Under the pieces are notes generated by a model. The model was given only the letters and a program-made list of their open reading frames with translations, was not told the DNA's origin and made no database searches. From positions 78,077 to 142,076 of the forward strand of contig JAYZXF010000017.1 of assembly GCA_036141575.1 (NCBI GenBank): 64,000 nucleotides of DNA, given 5' to 3'. The position numbers were made by a program, and so were the translations under genes. This stretch comes from Pseudomonadota bacterium (GTDB lineage Bacteria; Pseudomonadota; Alphaproteobacteria; UBA2136; JAPKEQ01). This document shows positions 3,896 through 58,565 of the stretch, piece after piece (position 1 is the stretch's first letter; the number at the start of each line of letters is the position of its first letter).

Positions 3896-4029
3896 TGTCT
3901 AAAAAAAGGGAAGGGTGATAGATCAAAATCACCCCTGTTGTATACGCCAAGGTGTTGCATTGTCAAACTTAAATGGGAAATGAAAAACAAAAAAGCTCCC
4001 CAAATTGGGAAGCTTTGCTTTCGAGTGAT

Positions 4030-4263
4030 TTAGAAGGACTGGCCAATGGCTTTGGAAAGCGTGATGGTGTTTTCAGTCTGCTGCTGGATGAGTGCTGCAG
4101 CCAGCTTGGCTGGTGGCGTTGGTGCAAAGTTCACCATCAGGGCACTGCATTGACGCATAGGCGTAAAAACAAGTTGTTCTTGCGCTTGCCGTGTTACGTT
4201 GGCGTAAGCCTGCGTGTAAGTATGCATGGCTTGAAGAGTACCCAAAGGCGTAAATAGAGTCAT
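4030..4263 (-). CDS. small hypothetical protein
   Basis: 77-aa ORF inside the cluster. Weakly supported. Confidence 0.3.
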   Translation of the reverse strand: MTLFTPLGTLQAMHTYTQAYANVTRQAQEQLVFTPMRQCSALMVNFAPTPPAKLAAALIQQQTENTITLSKAIGQSF

Positions 4264-4380
4264 AGAACCTCTCTGTAAAACGGTATGGTGGGTTGTTAGG
4301 AGCGCAGAAAGTAGGGGAAAGCAGGAGATCTGTCAATATATAAAAACAGCCCCCTTGCGAGAGCTGTCTTTGATTTCGAT

Positions 4381-4959
4381 TTAACCGAGGCCTTGGCCTT
4401 CTTCTGGCCAGAGGCGTGCACTGGCGCGGTCGCAGTTGCCAACATGGGCTGCAAGCGGGCAAGAGACACGGTGGGTGTTGGTGTAATCATCACCTTCACC
4501 ATGGGTATATTTCAACGCGTTCCACTCATTATCAGTCAGTTCAAAATCATAAGTTTTCATGAGCTCAAGAATGATACGCTTCTTAATGAATTCCCAATAT
4601 TTTGGAACAACATGTTGAAGCTCTGTATGCCAGTGTGCCACGCGCGGATCAGTAGGGTCTGCAAATTTGAAGATCTTCTCAATGTCATGGAAGAAAAACG
4701 TAACCGCAGCACTGCCTTTGGTAAAAGGCAGTGGACGAATCTGTTCCATGCCGTCATAGGTCACATCGTTAATGCGAAGGCCTTCTGCAATATGGTCTGC
4801 ATAGCCGCCAGGCCAAGCTTGGTGGTTATGGGTAGAGCCTGGAGCAGTATGGAAGAGGTCGTGGAAATCACGGTAAATTTGCAAGAGGACATTCTGGCGC
4901 GGATCATTGATCTGCTGAATGAGCCCTTTAAGCTTTGTGTCTAACAGAGACATAAGCAT
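4381..4959 (-). CDS. hypothetical protein with a His-rich motif, possibly an HD-type phosphohydrolase
   Basis: Motifs 'STHNHQAWPGGYADH' and 'FFFHDIEK' (H...HD pattern). The call is tentative. Confidence 0.45.
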   Translation of the reverse strand: MLMSLLDTKLKGLIQQINDPRQNVLLQIYRDFHDLFHTAPGSTHNHQAWPGGYADHIAEGLRINDVTYDGMEQIRPLPFTKGSAAVTFFFHDIEKIFKFADPTDPRVAHWHTELQHVVPKYWEFIKKRIILELMKTYDFELTDNEWNALKYTHGEGDDYTNTHRVSCPLAAHVGNCDRASARLWPEEGQGLG

Positions 4960-5107
4960 CTCCTTGTATAAAACGTGTTCAAAGATTGAAGAGTTCTTTT
5001 TTTATATCGTGGCTTTAAACATGTGGCAATGAAAAAGCCCCTTTATAGGAAGGGGCTTTATCTCGATTTAGCAGTACTGCGTATGGTCTCCTAAGGTAAG
5101 GGTGGGG

Positions 5108-5461
5108 TTAGCCGCGGGCCAGCTCAAGGAACGTGCGCATGGCTTCTGCCAGCGGGTTCAAACCAATCAGAGCACCAGGGTTCTCAGTTTTGGTTCTTTC
5201 AATCAGATCCTCAAGGCCTTTCAGGCCTTTTTCGCCGGTTGCCAAGGCATGTGCTGGCATACCAATCATAGTGGCAATCTCTTCAGCGCTCACTTCACCG
5301 CGGACAATCATGTTTTTCACTTCGGAAAACAGGCCAAGGGCGGCTTCTGCAGTTGCAGTGAGCATAGCAAGATTATCGGCTTTGAGTGCTTTACTGGCTT
5401 CACGTACAGCCATTTGGGCTGCACCAAGAAAGTTTTCAGCTTTAGCAAGATTCATATTCAT
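5108..5461 (-). CDS. hypothetical helical protein
   Basis: 117-aa ORF. A terminator-like hairpin lies downstream at about 5037-5060. Confidence 0.45.
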   Translation of the reverse strand: MNMNLAKAENFLGAAQMAVREASKALKADNLAMLTATAEAALGLFSEVKNMIVRGEVSAEEIATMIGMPAHALATGEKGLKGLEDLIERTKTENPGALIGLNPLAEAMRTFLELARG

Positions 5462-5636
5462 AGGAATATCTCCTGAGAAAAAAGGAAAAAGAAACAGATT
5501 TATAAAACAGAGCTGACCCTACGGGGCAGAGTCGTATACGTCAAGCGTAATGCTGAAACTTGAAGATGATCAAAATAATACCCAGCCATATAGGCTGGGT
5601 ATTTCAAGCTTAAGCTTTATTCCAAGAGATATGAAG

Positions 5637-5951
5637 TTAGTTCATTTCCAGTGGAATTTTCACAAGGAAGCTCTGACCGTATGTTTTCTTCTTCGGATCA
5701 AATCCGCTGAGTTTAACGTACGAGTACGGGAAGCGACGGCTGCAAGCATCAACCTGCGTCATCACCCAGCTCGCGCTGACTTCTTTGTGCTCTGGAATTG
5801 GCCAGATTTTCCAGTACACCTCTTCAGGTGTTGGTGCATCTGAGAACTCAATCATTGGCACTTGGCCTTCTGCAAGCATGTTTTGTGCTTGCATGTGCAC
5901 TTGGTTACTCGTCAGAGGCGGTAGGAATGAAAATGTTTCAAAACGTCTCAT
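5637..5951 (-). CDS. RuBisCO small-subunit-like protein (divergent RbcS/CbbS homolog)
   Basis: 'ETFSFLPPLTSNQV...IEF...YWKIWPIP...VKLSGFD' aligns with RbcS 'ETLSYLPPLTTDQ...LEF...YWTMWKLP...IRIIGFD'. Located 15 nt downstream of the large-subunit-like gene. Confidence 0.8.
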   Translation of the reverse strand: MRRFETFSFLPPLTSNQVHMQAQNMLAEGQVPMIEFSDAPTPEEVYWKIWPIPEHKEVSASWVMTQVDACSRRFPYSYVKLSGFDPKKKTYGQSFLVKIPLEMN

Positions 5952-5966
5952 TGTTTTTATCCTTTC

Positions 5967-7670
5967 TTAGTCATCCAAACCTGGACGAGTGTCATCAGTT
6001 ACGGGTTTCAGTGGGGTTACAACTTTTGGCGCTGTTGTTGTTTCTTCAATCTTAGCACCTGTTGCTGCGTCACCTTTCACAACACCAAACAGGAAGGCTC
6101 CTTCGTTCCAGAATTCTAGAGCGGCTTTCAGTTCGCTGTTGTAGCGGGCTGCACGTTGTAGAATTGTACGACCGTCAACACTTAGGTTATGACCTTCACC
6201 ACGGGCTTGTGCAATGGCTTCAATCGCCGTACGGCAAGCTGTTGCACCGCTGCCTAGGCCCCAAGGGTGACCCATTACTGATCCACCACACTGGATGATC
6301 ATGTCATCGCCCATTGCGTCCATCAGGCGAGGGAAGTGCCATGGGTTGTGTCCACCACCCACAGCAGGCCATACAGTGGCACCACCTACAGAGGGTTGGT
6401 CAAACATGATACCTGTTTCAACAGATGTTTTTGGTGCATCTTCAACAAGCATATCAACAATACCTTTCACGTGACGGCGGTTACCCGTATCACCACGCAG
6501 TGGACTACCGATACTTACCATGTCACAACCTGTGAAGCGAAGAAGCTTCGCAATCAGGCCTTCTGTCATTGTTGCGCTCATGAGGCTACGTCCGCCCATG
6601 GCACCAATAATCACATCGTTGTTCTGACACCAGTTCACCATGCTTGCAAGAGCACTCCAGCCGACAGCAGAGCTATCAACAATCATCATGTTGATGCCAA
6701 GCTCTTTTGCATATTCTGCACGAGCTGTCATATCTTCAACTGTTGGGGCACTAATGTTCACAGCGTGGTATTTCACTTCGCCCGTTTCTTGCTGTGCAGC
6801 AAAGGCAGCTTCAGCCACAAAACGGAAGCGACGGCGCCAGCTATTGTCTGGCAGGCTGTGCATCATGGTTGGGTCGGCAGTCATATCTACACCGCCTTTA
6901 AGTGTTTCGTACACCGCACGGCCGTACATCTTAGGTGATAGGCCGTTCATTGGGCGCATTGTGCTACTTAGCAGTGGGCGACCGTACTTGCTGGCAAGGT
7001 CACGCATACCAATCACACCGTATGAAGGTGTTTTAAATGTACGTGCAAGCCCAACAGGAATGCGGGCATCAACAATACGTGCACCTGTAGATGTAATAGG
7101 GGCACTGATCACGCTAATAAGGCTGACCATAGAGCCTGCTTCTACCATTTCTTGTGGGATGATCAGGCTTACGTTAACTGTAGAGCTATCTACGCGCTTT
7201 GTTTCAAGCAGTTTTACTTGTGGCACTGTCTCGTGGTCTACAAGAGAACCTGTCCAGCTTTCCACCCAGTCACCGTTTGCTGCGCTTACAAGAAGGTTAC
7301 CGCATTCGTTTTGGCTGAATGTTGTGTTCTCGTACTGGTAGCTAACAAGGATGTCTTGTTCTGGGTTAAAGCCTTGGTCTTCCTTACGGCGACCACGTGA
7401 GTCTGGCTTTTCATCAGTCGTTGGGGCTGCTACGGCTGCAAATGATGTCGTGCCGCCTGTTAGGCTGTCTAGCGATACACCAAGAACCGTGGCGATTTTA
7501 ACCACGTTATCTAGAGAAGGGCTTACTTGTCCGCCAAGGATGCGTGAGAGCGTTGCCATCGACACACCAGACTGGCGAGACAGGTCAGATGCAGACATGC
7601 CGTTCTTTTCCAAAATCTTTTTTAGAGCCTCAGGTAGGTTGTAAGGGCTCTCTGTTGTTTTCTTTGTCAT
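5967..7670 (-). CDS. fusion protein: N-terminal XRE-family HTH domain plus RuBisCO large-subunit-like domain, with carboxylase active-site residues substituted (the ORF could alternatively start at 7715)
   Basis: HTH_3-like segment 'SASDLSRQSGVSMATLSRILGGQVSPSLDNVVKIATVLGVSLDSL'. RbcL-like blocks 'DILVSYQ', 'KYGRPLLSSTMRPMNG', 'YGRAVYETLKGGVDMTADP', 'GGGHNPWHFP', 'QCGGSVMGHPWG'. SD 'AAGGA' lies 7 nt before the ATG at 7668-7670. Confidence 0.85.
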   Translation of the reverse strand: MTKKTTESPYNLPEALKKILEKNGMSASDLSRQSGVSMATLSRILGGQVSPSLDNVVKIATVLGVSLDSLTGGTTSFAAVAAPTTDEKPDSRGRRKEDQGFNPEQDILVSYQYENTTFSQNECGNLLVSAANGDWVESWTGSLVDHETVPQVKLLETKRVDSSTVNVSLIIPQEMVEAGSMVSLISVISAPITSTGARIVDARIPVGLARTFKTPSYGVIGMRDLASKYGRPLLSSTMRPMNGLSPKMYGRAVYETLKGGVDMTADPTMMHSLPDNSWRRRFRFVAEAAFAAQQETGEVKYHAVNISAPTVEDMTARAEYAKELGINMMIVDSSAVGWSALASMVNWCQNNDVIIGAMGGRSLMSATMTEGLIAKLLRFTGCDMVSIGSPLRGDTGNRRHVKGIVDMLVEDAPKTSVETGIMFDQPSVGGATVWPAVGGGHNPWHFPRLMDAMGDDMIIQCGGSVMGHPWGLGSGATACRTAIEAIAQARGEGHNLSVDGRTILQRAARYNSELKAALEFWNEGAFLFGVVKGDAATGAKIEETTTAPKVVTPLKPVTDDTRPGLDD

Positions 7671-7684
7671 TAAATTTTCCTTAT

Positions 7685-7702
7685 ATGGTAGCGAGCTACC
7701 AT
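7685..7702. promoter_or_regulatory. perfect 18-bp palindrome ATGGTAGCGAGCTACCAT immediately upstream of the RBS of the HTH-RuBisCO-like gene; candidate operator
   Basis: Read directly: the halves atggtagcg and cgctaccat are exact reverse complements. Confidence 0.5.
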
Positions 7703-7916
7703 TACGGTTATTCATTTACCTATTAAATGTAGTATCGCACAGGCTGTGCTTTTGCACAAATGGAAATATTGCAGATGTGGAAGAATTTCAAGGGCTGAAA
7801 TCAAAAAAATATCAAAAAAATAAAGGTGACTTTGTTTTTGTTGACAAATTAAAGGTGGATTGTATGCTGCCCTGCAACATTTATCTTCTCTTTCTTTTTC
7901 TAGGAGTACTTAATCA

Positions 7917-8381
7917 ATGGTATTCAGCTTTCTTGAGCCGTTGCTGCCTTATGTTGGTTTGGGGTTTCAAATCTTTGGAATGTGGATTGCTGCCTCGTGG
8001 CTTATGGAGCAGGCCTTCCTTAAAGTAAACGCTTTTTATGAGGCCCGGCAGCCTGAAAGGGACAAAGAGCGCTACCGGAAAAGCTTAGACCATTTTGCCT
8101 GCTATGATGAAGACATTGTTTCTGGAAATGGTGAACACTACAACCGGTTAACCATTGTGGAGCAGATTACAAAAACGCCTCGTAAGCAGAATTCGCGTTT
8201 TAAGCCTGTTGTAACAGAGGTGCGCTATACGTTTCTGACCCTGGATGAATCCGAATGGTTTTGGGAGGAGACGATGGAAAAAATGACGGCAGAGTCAAAA
8301 CCATACTCTAAAGAGCGTGTTGAACGCATGCTCGCGCGTTATAAAGCTGGCAAAATTAGACATGTTGATGCTGCAAAATAA
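7917..8381 (+). CDS. hypothetical protein, divergent from the RuBisCO-like gene
   Basis: 154-aa ORF. Confidence 0.4.
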   Translation: MVFSFLEPLLPYVGLGFQIFGMWIAASWLMEQAFLKVNAFYEARQPERDKERYRKSLDHFACYDEDIVSGNGEHYNRLTIVEQITKTPRKQNSRFKPVVTEVRYTFLTLDESEWFWEETMEKMTAESKPYSKERVERMLARYKAGKIRHVDAAK

Positions 8382-8420
8382 ACAGTATATGGCCCCCCTT
8401 TACAGGGCGGTCTTTTTCTT

Positions 8421-8657
8421 TTGTGGTTGACAGGTCTGGGAAATCCAGTATATTCGCCCATTCTGAAATACTTATTGAGTACCTGTTTACCTTTTTATTT
8501 GTCACCTGCTATGGAGGATAACTTGCTAACACCTGTTGCATTTTGCGTTGGACTGGCTTTTGGATATTTCGTGCTTCCGCTTTTGCTTGCCGCTCGGGCT
8601 TTGCCTGACTCAAGCCTAAGCCTGATGCCCGAAAAGGACGAAGAAGGCACGCCTTGA
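8421..8657 (+). CDS. small hypothetical membrane protein (start uncertain)
   Basis: Hydrophobic segment 'VAFCVGLAFGYFVLPLLLAA'. A terminator hairpin lies at about 8686-8710. Confidence 0.3.
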   Translation: MWLTGLGNPVYSPILKYLLSTCLPFYLSPAMEDNLLTPVAFCVGLAFGYFVLPLLLAARALPDSSLSLMPEKDEEGTP

Positions 8658-8769
8658 TGCCTGTATGTGATTGAATCGAAATGGAAGTCGCCCTGTTGGG
8701 CGGCTTTTTTATTTGTGTTACGCTCTATAAGAAATCAGGTTGGTTATAAATGACTAAGGGAATATCTTA

Positions 8770-9582
8770 ATGAGACACACAGTATGGATTGCGTCGTTGG
8801 CGCTTTTGTGTGCAGTAAATGCGCAAGCTTCAGAAGGAATTGCAAGGCAAATTCAGTCTCTTAAAACAGCAATGGATGGGTTTGCAGCAACTGCAAGAGC
8901 GCAAATTGCGTCCAATACAGCGAGTATTACTGAAAACGTAAGAATTATTGACTCTTTTGAGACCTGTGCTGAAAGCGGGATGATGTATGCCCCTGATGAT
9001 GTGACAGCGAATGCAGATGGCTGTAAGCGCGTCACCTCAACACAAGCGCTCAATGAAATTGATGTGTCAAGCCAGCTTGTGGCAACAGGCCGGTGGCTAC
9101 ACCCTTATAACTTTAGTGAGCATTCATCAAATGGGTCTCCATCAAAACGTGGCCGTTCTTATGCGCAGATTTATCGTATTAATGATCCTGATAATTATAA
9201 CAACTACCTGATTTCTGGTAATCTTTTTGGTGGTGGTAGTCGTTCTCATGATGAGGGTCAGTTCAGTTGTTGGAATGCTAATACTTATGTAAAGATTGGT
9301 AGTGGTTGGGTTTCTACAAACGGTGATTCTATTAAAATTGAACAGCTTGCCAATGTGTCTAAAACGCGTGTGGCAGGCCATGTTTATAATGGCACATTCC
9401 AAAACCAAATTGCGATTGTAAAGCGTACATCTCATAGCTGTTATAATAACGGAGGGGATTTAAATATGGGAATGAAGGTTAATTACATTACGTATCACAA
9501 TGGTATGAATGCACGTGCATCTTATCATGATAGTGACTCGCGAGCTTCAACACTGCGTGTGACAAACATTATTGGTTTTTAA
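8770..9582 (+). CDS. secreted protein, member A of the 'EG-ARQ' family
   Basis: Signal peptide, then 'SEGIARQIQSLKTAMDGF', then the two-Cys loop 'FETCAESGMMYAPDD...DGC'. Paralog of 12161-13015. Confidence 0.7.
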   Translation: MRHTVWIASLALLCAVNAQASEGIARQIQSLKTAMDGFAATARAQIASNTASITENVRIIDSFETCAESGMMYAPDDVTANADGCKRVTSTQALNEIDVSSQLVATGRWLHPYNFSEHSSNGSPSKRGRSYAQIYRINDPDNYNNYLISGNLFGGGSRSHDEGQFSCWNANTYVKIGSGWVSTNGDSIKIEQLANVSKTRVAGHVYNGTFQNQIAIVKRTSHSCYNNGGDLNMGMKVNYITYHNGMNARASYHDSDSRASTLRVTNIIGF

Positions 9583-10217: not shown

Positions 10218-10255
10218 AAAAAAAAGCCACCCCGAAGGGTGGCTTTCTTTATTTA
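10218..10255. terminator. bidirectional rho-independent terminator 'aaaaaaagccaccccgaagggtggctttcttt'
   Basis: 10-bp stem with a GAAG loop, an A-run on one side and a T-run on the other. Lies between convergent genes. Confidence 0.75.
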
Positions 10256-20142: not shown

Positions 20143-20348
20143 GAAGTCTTCGTGGTGCTTCATAAACGAGTGCGTAGTGAAGCGGAGCCAAAACCTTAAG
20201 AGGTTTTGAGCGGTTTAAAGCATTTAAAAATAAGGCGGAGCATTATTTTTGAAAGTAAGGGGTTTAAACCAAGACCATGCTTTGCGAGTTATCGCCTTTT
20301 TGGAGCAGCGTAGCGAATGAAAAAAGCGAGAACATGAAGCAAAGAATT
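20143..20348. repeat. intergenic repeat element, module B copy (near-identical to 58357-58555)
   Basis: Shared string 'gagccaaaaccttaagaggttttgagcggttt(a/g)aagca.ttaaaaataag...ggtttaaaccaagac...ctttgcg.g.tatcg.ctttttgga/agcag...gaatgaaaaaagcgaga'. Confidence 0.8.
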
Positions 20349-57302: not shown

Positions 57303-57336
57303 GCGAAAGCCACCCCGAAGGGTGGCTTTCTTTTTA
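57303..57336. terminator. bidirectional terminator 'aaagccaccccgaagggtggctttcttttt' (28 nt identical to 10221-10248)
   Basis: Perfect stem with a GAAG loop. Between TpsA and the convergent GC-rich gene. Confidence 0.75.
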
Positions 57337-58154: not shown

Positions 58155-58565
58155 TTACTCTTCACTTTCATTCCACCATTTTTCAAATTTAAAATTTGTA
58201 AAATGGTGGACCCCGTGAAGTAAGTCTTGGTGCGCAAGTTTTTAAGTATTTTAGGTCTGCTTACATCCCTAAAATAGCTCTTGTGCACCGCCGTAGCGTC
58301 TGAACGCTACGGCTCGCTTTTTCAGCTCGCGAAGTACTAGGAGATAACAGAGATATTGGCCTGATAGAGTGTGAGGCGAATAGCCGAGCCAAAACCTTAA
58401 GAGGTTTTGAGCGGTTTGAAGCAGTTAAAAATAAGACAGAGGATTATTTTTACTATAAATGCTTTAAACCAAGACTGTACTTTGCGGGCTATCGTCTTTT
58501 TGAAGTAGTGAAACGAATGAAAAAAGCGAGAGCGTAAAGCAAAGAGAGAAAAAGAGAGTCTAGGA
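58155..58565. repeat. full-length intergenic repeat element (module A hairpin 58160-58220 plus module B 58357-58555)
   Basis: Long hairpin 'cttcac tttcatt ccaccattttt caaatttaaaatttg taaaatggtgg acccc gtgaag'. Module B is near-identical to 20160-20345. Confidence 0.8.

Follow-up and report, generated by a model that had tools for sequence, protein, structure and literature searches.

Transcription regulators of the XRE family commonly autoregulate through palindromes located beside their own genes (PMC12565409; PMC7901475), and the XRE-cupin repressors PauR, PsdR, and ErfA are XRE regulators with a C-terminal sensor domain (PMC7901475). Here we analyse a 64-kb stretch of contig JAYZXF010000017.1 from a Pseudomonadota bacterium (hereafter, the window; positions are counted from its first letter) that encodes a protein in which an XRE-type helix-turn-helix (HTH) domain is fused to a body homologous to the large subunit of RuBisCO (RbcL). 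With a probability that we put at roughly 0.58, the HTH of this fusion protein binds three copies of a box that is shared by the whole family of HTH-RbcL-like genes and, in doing so, autoregulates the operon, which includes a gene for an RbcS-like protein. In the first-pass annotation, the operator was probably mis-assigned to an 18-bp inverted repeat that overlaps one of these boxes.

When the 100 nt preceding the start codon were lined up for 29 loci of the family, a 14-16-bp pseudo-palindromic box, aTTSCA-N4-TGSAAa, was found to recur upstream of the HTH-RbcL-like genes family-wide. Examples of the 14-bp box from these loci are TTCCATATATGGAA, TTGCATTTATGCAA, TTGCATAAATGCAA, and TTCATATATGAA. 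The half-sites follow the pattern TT[C>G>T]CA, the commonest being TTCCA, and in the 14-bp core, position 4 is C and position 5 is A, each with a frequency of 0.97. Most box centres fall 8-60 nt ahead of the start codon, and two copies, 17-21 bp apart, are often present. Unsupervised expectation maximization on 26 non-redundant upstream regions yielded aTTCCATATATGCAAa. With both strands counted, 4.2 kb of upstream regions contain the strict pattern TTSCA-N5-GSAA 24 times, versus 8 times for 198 kb of other DNA from the same loci, a ~140-fold enrichment. Only 11 of 34 sites have complementary bases at the degenerate S positions, where C/C is the commonest combination; with complementarity so rare, the symmetry is not maintained for base pairing in RNA, an indication that the box is recognized as DNA. 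Furthermore, the box accompanies the gene family across very different lineages of metagenome-assembled genomes (MAGs).

The close relatives of the window locus were compared in three groups: group A, consisting of the window, L002, and L042-44; group B, consisting of L005, L007, L036-41, and L045-49, with ~92% amino-acid identity to the window protein; and group C, which is L001, with a protein 86% identical to that of the window. To avoid circularity, this clade was left out of the scan matrix, which was built from distant relatives only, without the window, L001, L005, and L007, and was run over both strands of the 64-kb window, 127,970 positions altogether. The features of the upstream region and of the operon are listed here, from the most distal box to the downstream gene.

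7768-7783, minus strand: box 1, CTTCCACATCTGCAAT, 14.4 bits, 17 bp centre-to-centre from box 2
7751-7766, minus strand: box 2, TTTCCATTTGTGCAAA, 14.1 bits, overlapping the candidate -35 element
7731-7759, minus strand: candidate sigma-70-type promoter, picked by eye, with -35 TTGTGC at 7759-7754, a 17-nt spacer, and -10 GATACT at 7736-7731
7676-7691, minus strand: box 3, CTACCATATAAGGAAA, 14.7 bits, the top of the 127,970 positions
7678-7682, minus strand: Shine-Dalgarno (SD) sequence AAGGA, with a 7-nt spacer, inside box 3 and identical in groups A and B
7668-7670, minus strand: start codon ATG as placed by the aligned N-termini of the family, the sole in-frame start in group B
5967-7670, minus strand: coding sequence of the HTH-RbcL-like fusion protein, 567 aa, start MTKKTT
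5637-5951, minus strand: RbcS-like gene (Pfam RuBisCO_small, 1e-25), 15 nt downstream of the fusion gene

Boxes 1-3 are the three best positions of the window, and all of them fall within 108 bp ahead of the fusion gene; the next best position elsewhere scores 13.9 bits. Box 2 fits the strict pattern TTSCA-N5-GSAA on both strands, and box 3 consists of a left half, CTACCAT, and a right half, AAGGAAA, which contains the SD. In the 13.7-kb loci of the close relatives, matches of at least 13 bits are found upstream of the fusion gene only. Boxes 1 and 2 are conserved in groups A and B and in L001, where they score 20.6 and 16.2 bits.

At fourfold-degenerate coding sites, groups A and B differ by 47-52%, and the 140 nt upstream of the gene are 84-87% identical; the ~125-bp upstream region of the fusion gene is under strong purifying selection. 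The blocks that are invariant between the two groups are boxes 1 and 2 together with an adjoining TTGAAA, the -10 element of the candidate promoter, box 3 (16 of 16 nt), and the 19-nt sequence ATGAATAACCGTAATGGTA. The differences occur in patches: in the spacer of the candidate promoter, at a few bases around the predicted transcription start site (TSS), and in the centre of the inverted repeat discussed below. Both hexamers of the candidate promoter are thus conserved with a variable spacer between them, and the equivalent promoter of L001 is TTTACG-18-CATAAT (9/12). From the position of these hexamers, the TSS is predicted ~54 nt upstream of ATG 7670. The possibility that some relatives are leaderless, with a box on the -10 element, was considered and rejected because it failed under strict hexamer alignment.

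The fusion protein consists of an XRE-type HTH (residues ~10-72), a disordered linker (73-98), a RuBisCO-large-subunit-like body (~99-528), and a disordered tail (529-567). Pfam recognizes HTH_3 (PF01381) with 49.5 bits, above the gathering cut-off of 23 (E 4.4e-13). The match spans residues 16-69 of the 567-aa protein (31-84 in the 582-aa reading) and is followed by RuBisCO_large (3.5e-62). In the AlphaFold model (mean predicted local distance difference test score, pLDDT, 81.8), both the HTH and the RbcL-like body are confident, and the HTH forms five helices (12-23, 27-34, 38-45, 53-63, and 67-71; pLDDT 79-91). The nearest solved relatives of this HTH are those of HigA, HipB, and SinR, all dimeric operator-binders. 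Across the HTH-RbcL-like family, the segment of the recognition helix, S[MV]A[ST]LSRIL, hardly varies, which matches a conserved DNA target. In L001, the helix-2/helix-3 segment, SASDLSRQSGVSMATLSRIL, is identical to that of the window, so that the recognition helix is unchanged.

The best matches of the body in the PDB are form I large subunits (7qsw, 6.4e-88; 1rsc, 4.8e-86), with residues ~105-531 covered. In the alignment to 7qsw, however, the catalytic residues K175, K177, K201 (the carbamate), D203, E204, H294, H327, and K334 are all replaced: TIKPK of 7qsw becomes TMRPM in the fusion protein, DFTKDDE becomes DMTADPT, LHLHRAMH becomes IGAMGG-R, DHIHTG becomes DMVSIG, and VGKLEG becomes LRGDTG. 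The phosphate-binding glycines G380-G381 and G403-G404 are retained. With the catalytic residues replaced, the fusion protein is not a carboxylase; judging from this alignment, the body is a catalytically dead derivative of form I, in which the RuBisCO fold probably has no role left other than that of a sensor or scaffold. Of the traits of form IV RuBisCO-like proteins, the loss of the carboxylase residues is seen here, but the fusion gene is accompanied by a small-subunit gene, and among solved sequences, those of form I and not of form IV are nearest. The RbcS-like gene, presumably, co-transcribed with the fusion gene, follows it on the 3' side in nearly all of the ~30 family loci examined; at loci L030 and L031, no RbcS-like gene was detected. 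A protein search returned ~88 clusters at E <= 4e-125, nearly all with HTH_3 plus RuBisCO_large; the ~80 clusters with the fusion architecture come mostly from uncultured Alphaproteobacteria and from MAGs of other Pseudomonadota.

The position of the boxes relative to the gene depends on the start codon, for which there are two in-frame candidates, and the sequence upstream of the gene contains the inverted repeat. These two features are the following.

7713-7715, minus strand: upstream in-frame ATG, rejected as the start, without a usable SD and out of frame in group B
7685-7702, on neither strand in particular: inverted repeat, ATGGTAGC-GA-GCTACCAT, 8+2+8, self-complementary at 16 of 18 positions

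The first-pass annotation had preferred a start at 7670 over 7715, and the comparison with homologues shows the same: their N-termini, MTKK, MTKQ, or MAKQ, align to 7670. A 99%-identical database protein of 567 aa begins with MTKK, and relatives at ~55% identity begin with MTKQK, MAKQK, or MTKEH at the aligned position, whereas the 15-residue N-terminal extension that would result from ATG 7715 is found in no aligned homologue. The SD reported for the downstream ATG is indeed present, with AAGGA read at 7682-7678 and a 7-nt spacer, and ATG 7715 is, as stated, poorly equipped, preceded by AGG alone at 3-nt spacing. Finally, in group B, a 1-nt indel (GGAAATTTTAAAATG) shifts the upstream ATG out of frame, and the in-frame codons are TAA-GGA-AAT-TTT-AAA-ATG, so that MTKK is the sole possible start there. 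Taken together, the aligned sequences place the start of the fusion gene at ATG 7670. In group B, the shifted ATG (~45 nt before the start, equivalent to window 7713-7715) opens an upstream open reading frame (ORF) of 16 codons, MNNRNGILLPYKEILK*, whose TGA overlaps the main ATG (ATGA); the equivalent ATG of the window is in frame with the gene. Around the upstream ATG, the pattern of changes indicates that nucleotides are conserved rather than a reading frame.

With the start so placed, the mechanism that we favour is as follows. Dimers of the N-terminal XRE-type HTH would bind the family boxes, tethered through a flexible linker of ~26 residues to the RuBisCO-like body. The body, together with the RbcS-like partner, would act as an oligomerisation scaffold and, probably, as a ligand sensor. 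Boxes 1 and 2 would be read across the candidate -35 element, and box 3, over the SD, in the DNA of the 5'-untranslated region (5'-UTR). The operon would thereby be autoregulated. Repression is the most likely mode, given the overlap with the candidate -35 element and the 5'-UTR as well as the analogy with XRE-cupin repressors and with XRE autoregulation. Boxes 2 and 3 are 75 bp apart (~7 helical turns), so that looping would be permitted. The 18-bp repeat itself would not be the operator; its start-proximal arm would be the left half-site of box 3.

Several observations weigh against this mechanism. What connects the fusion protein with the box is co-occurrence only. Box 3 is absent in L001 and, accordingly, is not essential in every lineage, and its score in the window is owed partly to the SD-like AAGGAAA. 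In L030, the recognition helix is divergent, yet boxes are still present. The window hexamers fall below the threshold of the consensus scan, which found only the divergent plus-strand promoter at 7841-7868, and a relaxed scan gave clear promoters in few family loci. The binding of boxes also does not explain why ATGAATAACCGTAATGGTA, the 19-nt block that includes the distal arm of the inverted repeat, is identical between groups A and B.

A bolder version of the mechanism, which we regard as decidedly unlikely, would involve an L8S8-type particle, built from the fusion protein and its RbcS-like partner in the manner of form I RuBisCO, with up to eight flexibly tethered HTHs, that engages boxes 1-3 and, perhaps, also the half-site in the distal arm, wrapping or looping ~110 bp of its own promoter, with occupancy tuned by a sugar-phosphate in the remnant active site. 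The phosphate-binding glycines of this site are kept. If true, the architecture of the RuBisCO holoenzyme would have been re-used as a multivalent transcription factor.

Boxes of the same type were encountered in two other settings. In L089 (JAEIGA010019876.1, a phage-like contig), the region 3975-4616 holds six family-type boxes of 11.9-15.4 bits, for example, ATTCCACTTGTGCAAG, in 380 bp directly upstream of a gene for a 76-aa stand-alone XRE HTH. This protein is 30% identical to the window HTH and shares with it T[IL]SRxLxGQxxPS; its gene is flanked by large phage-like ORFs. The arrangement resembles an immunity region with the same box type and provides an independent, if anecdotal, link between this HTH subtype and the box. 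L031, which comes from a Magnetococcales MAG, has a further strong box at 4686-4701 (TTTTCATATATGAAAA, 17.7 bits), ~100 nt downstream of the fusion gene and before the next ORF, and this box may mark a second regulated promoter. A metagenome scan for twin boxes, TTCCA-N5-GCAA-N3-TTCCA-N5-GCAA, returned 75 stretches, none of them beside an HTH-RbcL-like gene; these were mostly chance matches or 17-nt tandem repeats, and only L089 was informative.

The alternatives to the favoured mechanism mostly concern the 18-bp repeat. The 18-mer ATGGTAGCGAGCTACCAT is found where it had been reported, at 7685-7702, and lies 15 nt upstream of ATG 7670. It had been described, however, as an exact palindrome with 9-bp half-sites, which it is not: the arms are 8 bp long and flank a non-complementary GA. 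No second copy from which a regulon might be delineated exists in the 64 kb, even with 3 mismatches allowed, and ATGGTA-N6-TACCAT occurs elsewhere only at the orthologous spot of close relatives. In group B, these outer 6-bp arms are kept around a different centre, CATTAC or TATTAC in place of GCTCGC in the window. The repeat is absent from L001, although the sequence farther upstream is conserved there, and from all the more distant family loci (55% identity or less). The start-proximal arm occupies 7685-7692, and bases 7685-7691 (7 of 8) make up the left half of box 3, whereas the distal arm, 7695-7702, is outside every box. We considered the distal arm as a fourth box and rejected it because the 16-mer that ends there scores below 4 bits with the family matrix. 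Still, its DNA is identical in groups A and B at ~50% neutral divergence and, therefore, is under selection for something beyond the boxes; the arm may be a lineage-specific complement, as part of a small 5'-UTR hairpin or as an orphan half-site.

The first alternative, which we consider unlikely, is that the repeat acts as RNA, forming a stem-loop in the 5'-UTR ahead of the SD that affects mRNA stability or translation initiation, with or without DNA boxes. With the TSS near -54, the repeat would be transcribed; groups A and B have the stem in common but differ at 4 of 6 loop positions, and the group-A changes add two G:C pairs. The whole 5'-UTR is also far more conserved than neutral sites. 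Taken alone as RNA, the repeat folds with -8.1 kcal/mol in the window, where the UTR as a whole has a z-score of -1.96. In L001, a different, larger and stronger structure (z-score -2.47) occupies the same place and is joined by a hairpin that sequesters the SD. Against an RNA role, the group-B hairpins are weak (-5.3 kcal/mol, z-score ~-0.35), such that 64-67 of 200 shuffled sequences fold equally well; the shared stem contains no compensatory change; and the covariation term of RNAalifold, with only three sequence states available, is zero, the alignment of L001 being unconvincing. No match to Rfam was found, at E <= 1 in 7550-8000, and there is no terminator-like site in 7600-7960. A modest post-transcriptional role of the repeat is compatible with binding of the boxes by the fusion protein. 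In L001, the SD is paired with the start codon in a 7-bp hairpin, AUAAGGG-ACUC-CCUUAUG, at 5985-6003, and a larger stem, GCUGA...UCAGC, is located where the window has the 18-bp repeat.

Next, the box might be read by another factor, such as a global regulator of the CRP/FNR type, or be part of an alternative-sigma promoter. A subset of the boxes, TTGCA-N4-TGCAA, loosely fits TTGN-N6-NCAA, which we take to be the FixK-type box scheme, and the boxes overlap the promoter region. The FNR consensus is TTGAT-N4-ATCAA, however, and the core of the family box has C and A at positions 4 and 5 where that consensus has A and T; likewise, by eye, the GG-to-GC spacing in 7751-7783 does not fit the sigma-54 pattern, TGGCAC-N5-TTGC. 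On these invariant positions and spacing, the FNR and sigma-54 readings of the box were rejected. A global regulator is also difficult to reconcile with the distribution of the box: all three matches of at least 14 bits in the 64 kb, and all those of at least 13 bits in the 13.7-kb loci of the relatives, precede the fusion gene, and the box goes together with this gene family across MAG lineages as well as with a related stand-alone HTH in a phage-like contig. We consider another factor very unlikely.

The proposal of the first-pass annotation, in which a dimer of the fusion HTH binds the 18-bp repeat, ATGGTAGC-NN-GCTACCAT, as an autoregulatory operator at or close to the ribosome-binding site, is in our assessment highly improbable in this form. 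A regulatory site at the promoter and the ribosome-binding site remains plausible, given that box 3 overlaps the SD and boxes 1 and 2 lie in the promoter region; it is the choice of the repeat that does not hold up. The repeat is well placed, 15 nt upstream of the true start; groups A and B share its outer 6-bp arms but not its centre, as expected of contacted half-sites around an uncontacted spacer; and the arms resemble box half-sites (ATGGtA and TaCCAT versus ATGGAA and TTCCAT). Nevertheless, the repeat is not the conserved element. It is missing in all other family members and in L001, which has the identical recognition helix and boxes 1 and 2, and an operator for an unchanged helix should not vanish in this manner. 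In addition, the half-sites are everted, at 12 bp centre-to-centre versus ~9 bp in the family, the distal 16-mer fails against the family matrix as noted above, and the palindrome is imperfect and belongs to a class that is common in the window, where it has no other copy. The window has 18 distinct places with an inverted repeat whose arms measure 8 bp or more and whose spacer does not exceed 4 nt, versus 5.6 +/- 2.7 expected from first-order Markov simulations, so that one such repeat near a gene start is weak evidence by itself. Placing the operator at the boxes instead steers binding assays away from the wrong site.

The last alternative, that the repeat is a by-product without a function of its own, arisen by chance or by hairpin-templated mutation beside box 3, can draw on that excess of 8-bp-arm repeats (18 versus 5.6 by chance), on the overlapping repeats of group B, GTAATG-gta-CATTAC and ATGGTA-N6-TACCAT, which resemble templated copying, and on the absence of the repeat in L001, but it is hardly compatible with a distal arm within 19 nt that do not differ at all between groups A and B despite ~50% neutral divergence, and we give it a very slim chance.

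Other repeats were observed in the same DNA. Within 150 nt, the region 7660-7810 of the window contains four inverted repeats whose arms measure 6 bp or more, namely, ATTTCA-gccct-TGAAAT, GCACAG-c-CTGTGC, CATTTA-atagg-TAAATG, and the repeat at 7685-7702; group B has one or two. Elsewhere in the window, two 20-nt hairpin sequences, AGCCACCCCGAAGGGTGGCT and CAAAACCTTAAGAGGTTTTG, are each identical at two distant sites (10225-10244 and 57308-57327; 20189-20208 and 58390-58409) and could be shared terminators or a small dispersed repeat.

The locus belongs to a bacterial chromosome. A phage origin of the window was considered and rejected, as megablast of 5000-9000 against phage records gave nothing; the contigs of the relatives are bacterial, with rpsI/rplM nearby, and the window also encodes PntAB, a SurA/PpiD-like protein, a DEAD helicase, and two-partner (TPS) secretion. 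Divergently from the fusion gene, a 154-aa ORF without a Pfam match occupies 7917-8381 (plus strand) and is preceded by a good sigma-70-like promoter, TTGACA-16-TATGCT, at 7841-7868 (plus strand), that drives it. This neighbour is present in group A genomes only, so the boxes do not travel with it.

The RuBisCO holoenzyme-like gene pair appears to have been turned into a transcription factor, in a family for which we found no description; full-text searches of the literature yielded no paper on an HTH-RuBisCO-like fusion. The re-use of the RuBisCO fold as a transcription factor is open to direct tests, given the start codon, the three mapped boxes, and the finding that the repeat is not the conserved element.

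Among described systems, several share parts of this arrangement. As in HipB, HigA, SinR, and 434 Cro/CI, a five-helix HTH would face inverted half-sites approximately one helical turn apart; these proteins autoregulate via operators that overlap their own promoters, and the likeness of the fusion protein to them in this respect is inferred. They dimerise via the HTH or a short tail, whereas in the fusion protein this role would fall to the RuBisCO-like body. To our knowledge, TTSCA-N4-TGSAA is not assignable to any characterised small XRE/Cro-type member. Like the trigger enzymes PutA and BirA, in which an N-terminal DNA-binding domain attached to an enzyme fold binds the protein's own control region, the fusion combines an enzyme fold with such a domain, but PutA and BirA are active enzymes, and the body of the fusion is devoid of the RuBisCO catalytic residues. 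CbbR, the regulator of canonical RuBisCO genes, is a separate, divergently transcribed LysR protein that recognizes T-N11-A motifs. Like the fusion protein, it is a dedicated DNA-binding regulator tied to rbcL/rbcS-like genes, and its sites, like those predicted here, occupy the intergenic region upstream. The fusion protein differs in having its DNA-binding domain and RbcL-like body in one polypeptide, and its presumed motif bears no relation to that of CbbR. A further parallel is with the XRE-cupin regulators, which also have an N-terminal HTH_3 followed by a domain that does not bind DNA, palindromic motifs beside their own gene, and, apparently, a local regulon, as suggested here by the lack of any other strong box in the 64 kb. 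In contrast to these regulators, the putative sensor here is a form-I-derived RuBisCO large-subunit homologue of ~430 residues with a conserved RbcS-like partner gene, and there are three predicted boxes, distributed across 108 bp and including one that covers the SD. Autoregulation of XRE-type regulators through palindromic operators is ordinary; it is the RuBisCO homologue in the place of the sensor or scaffold that sets the fusion apart.

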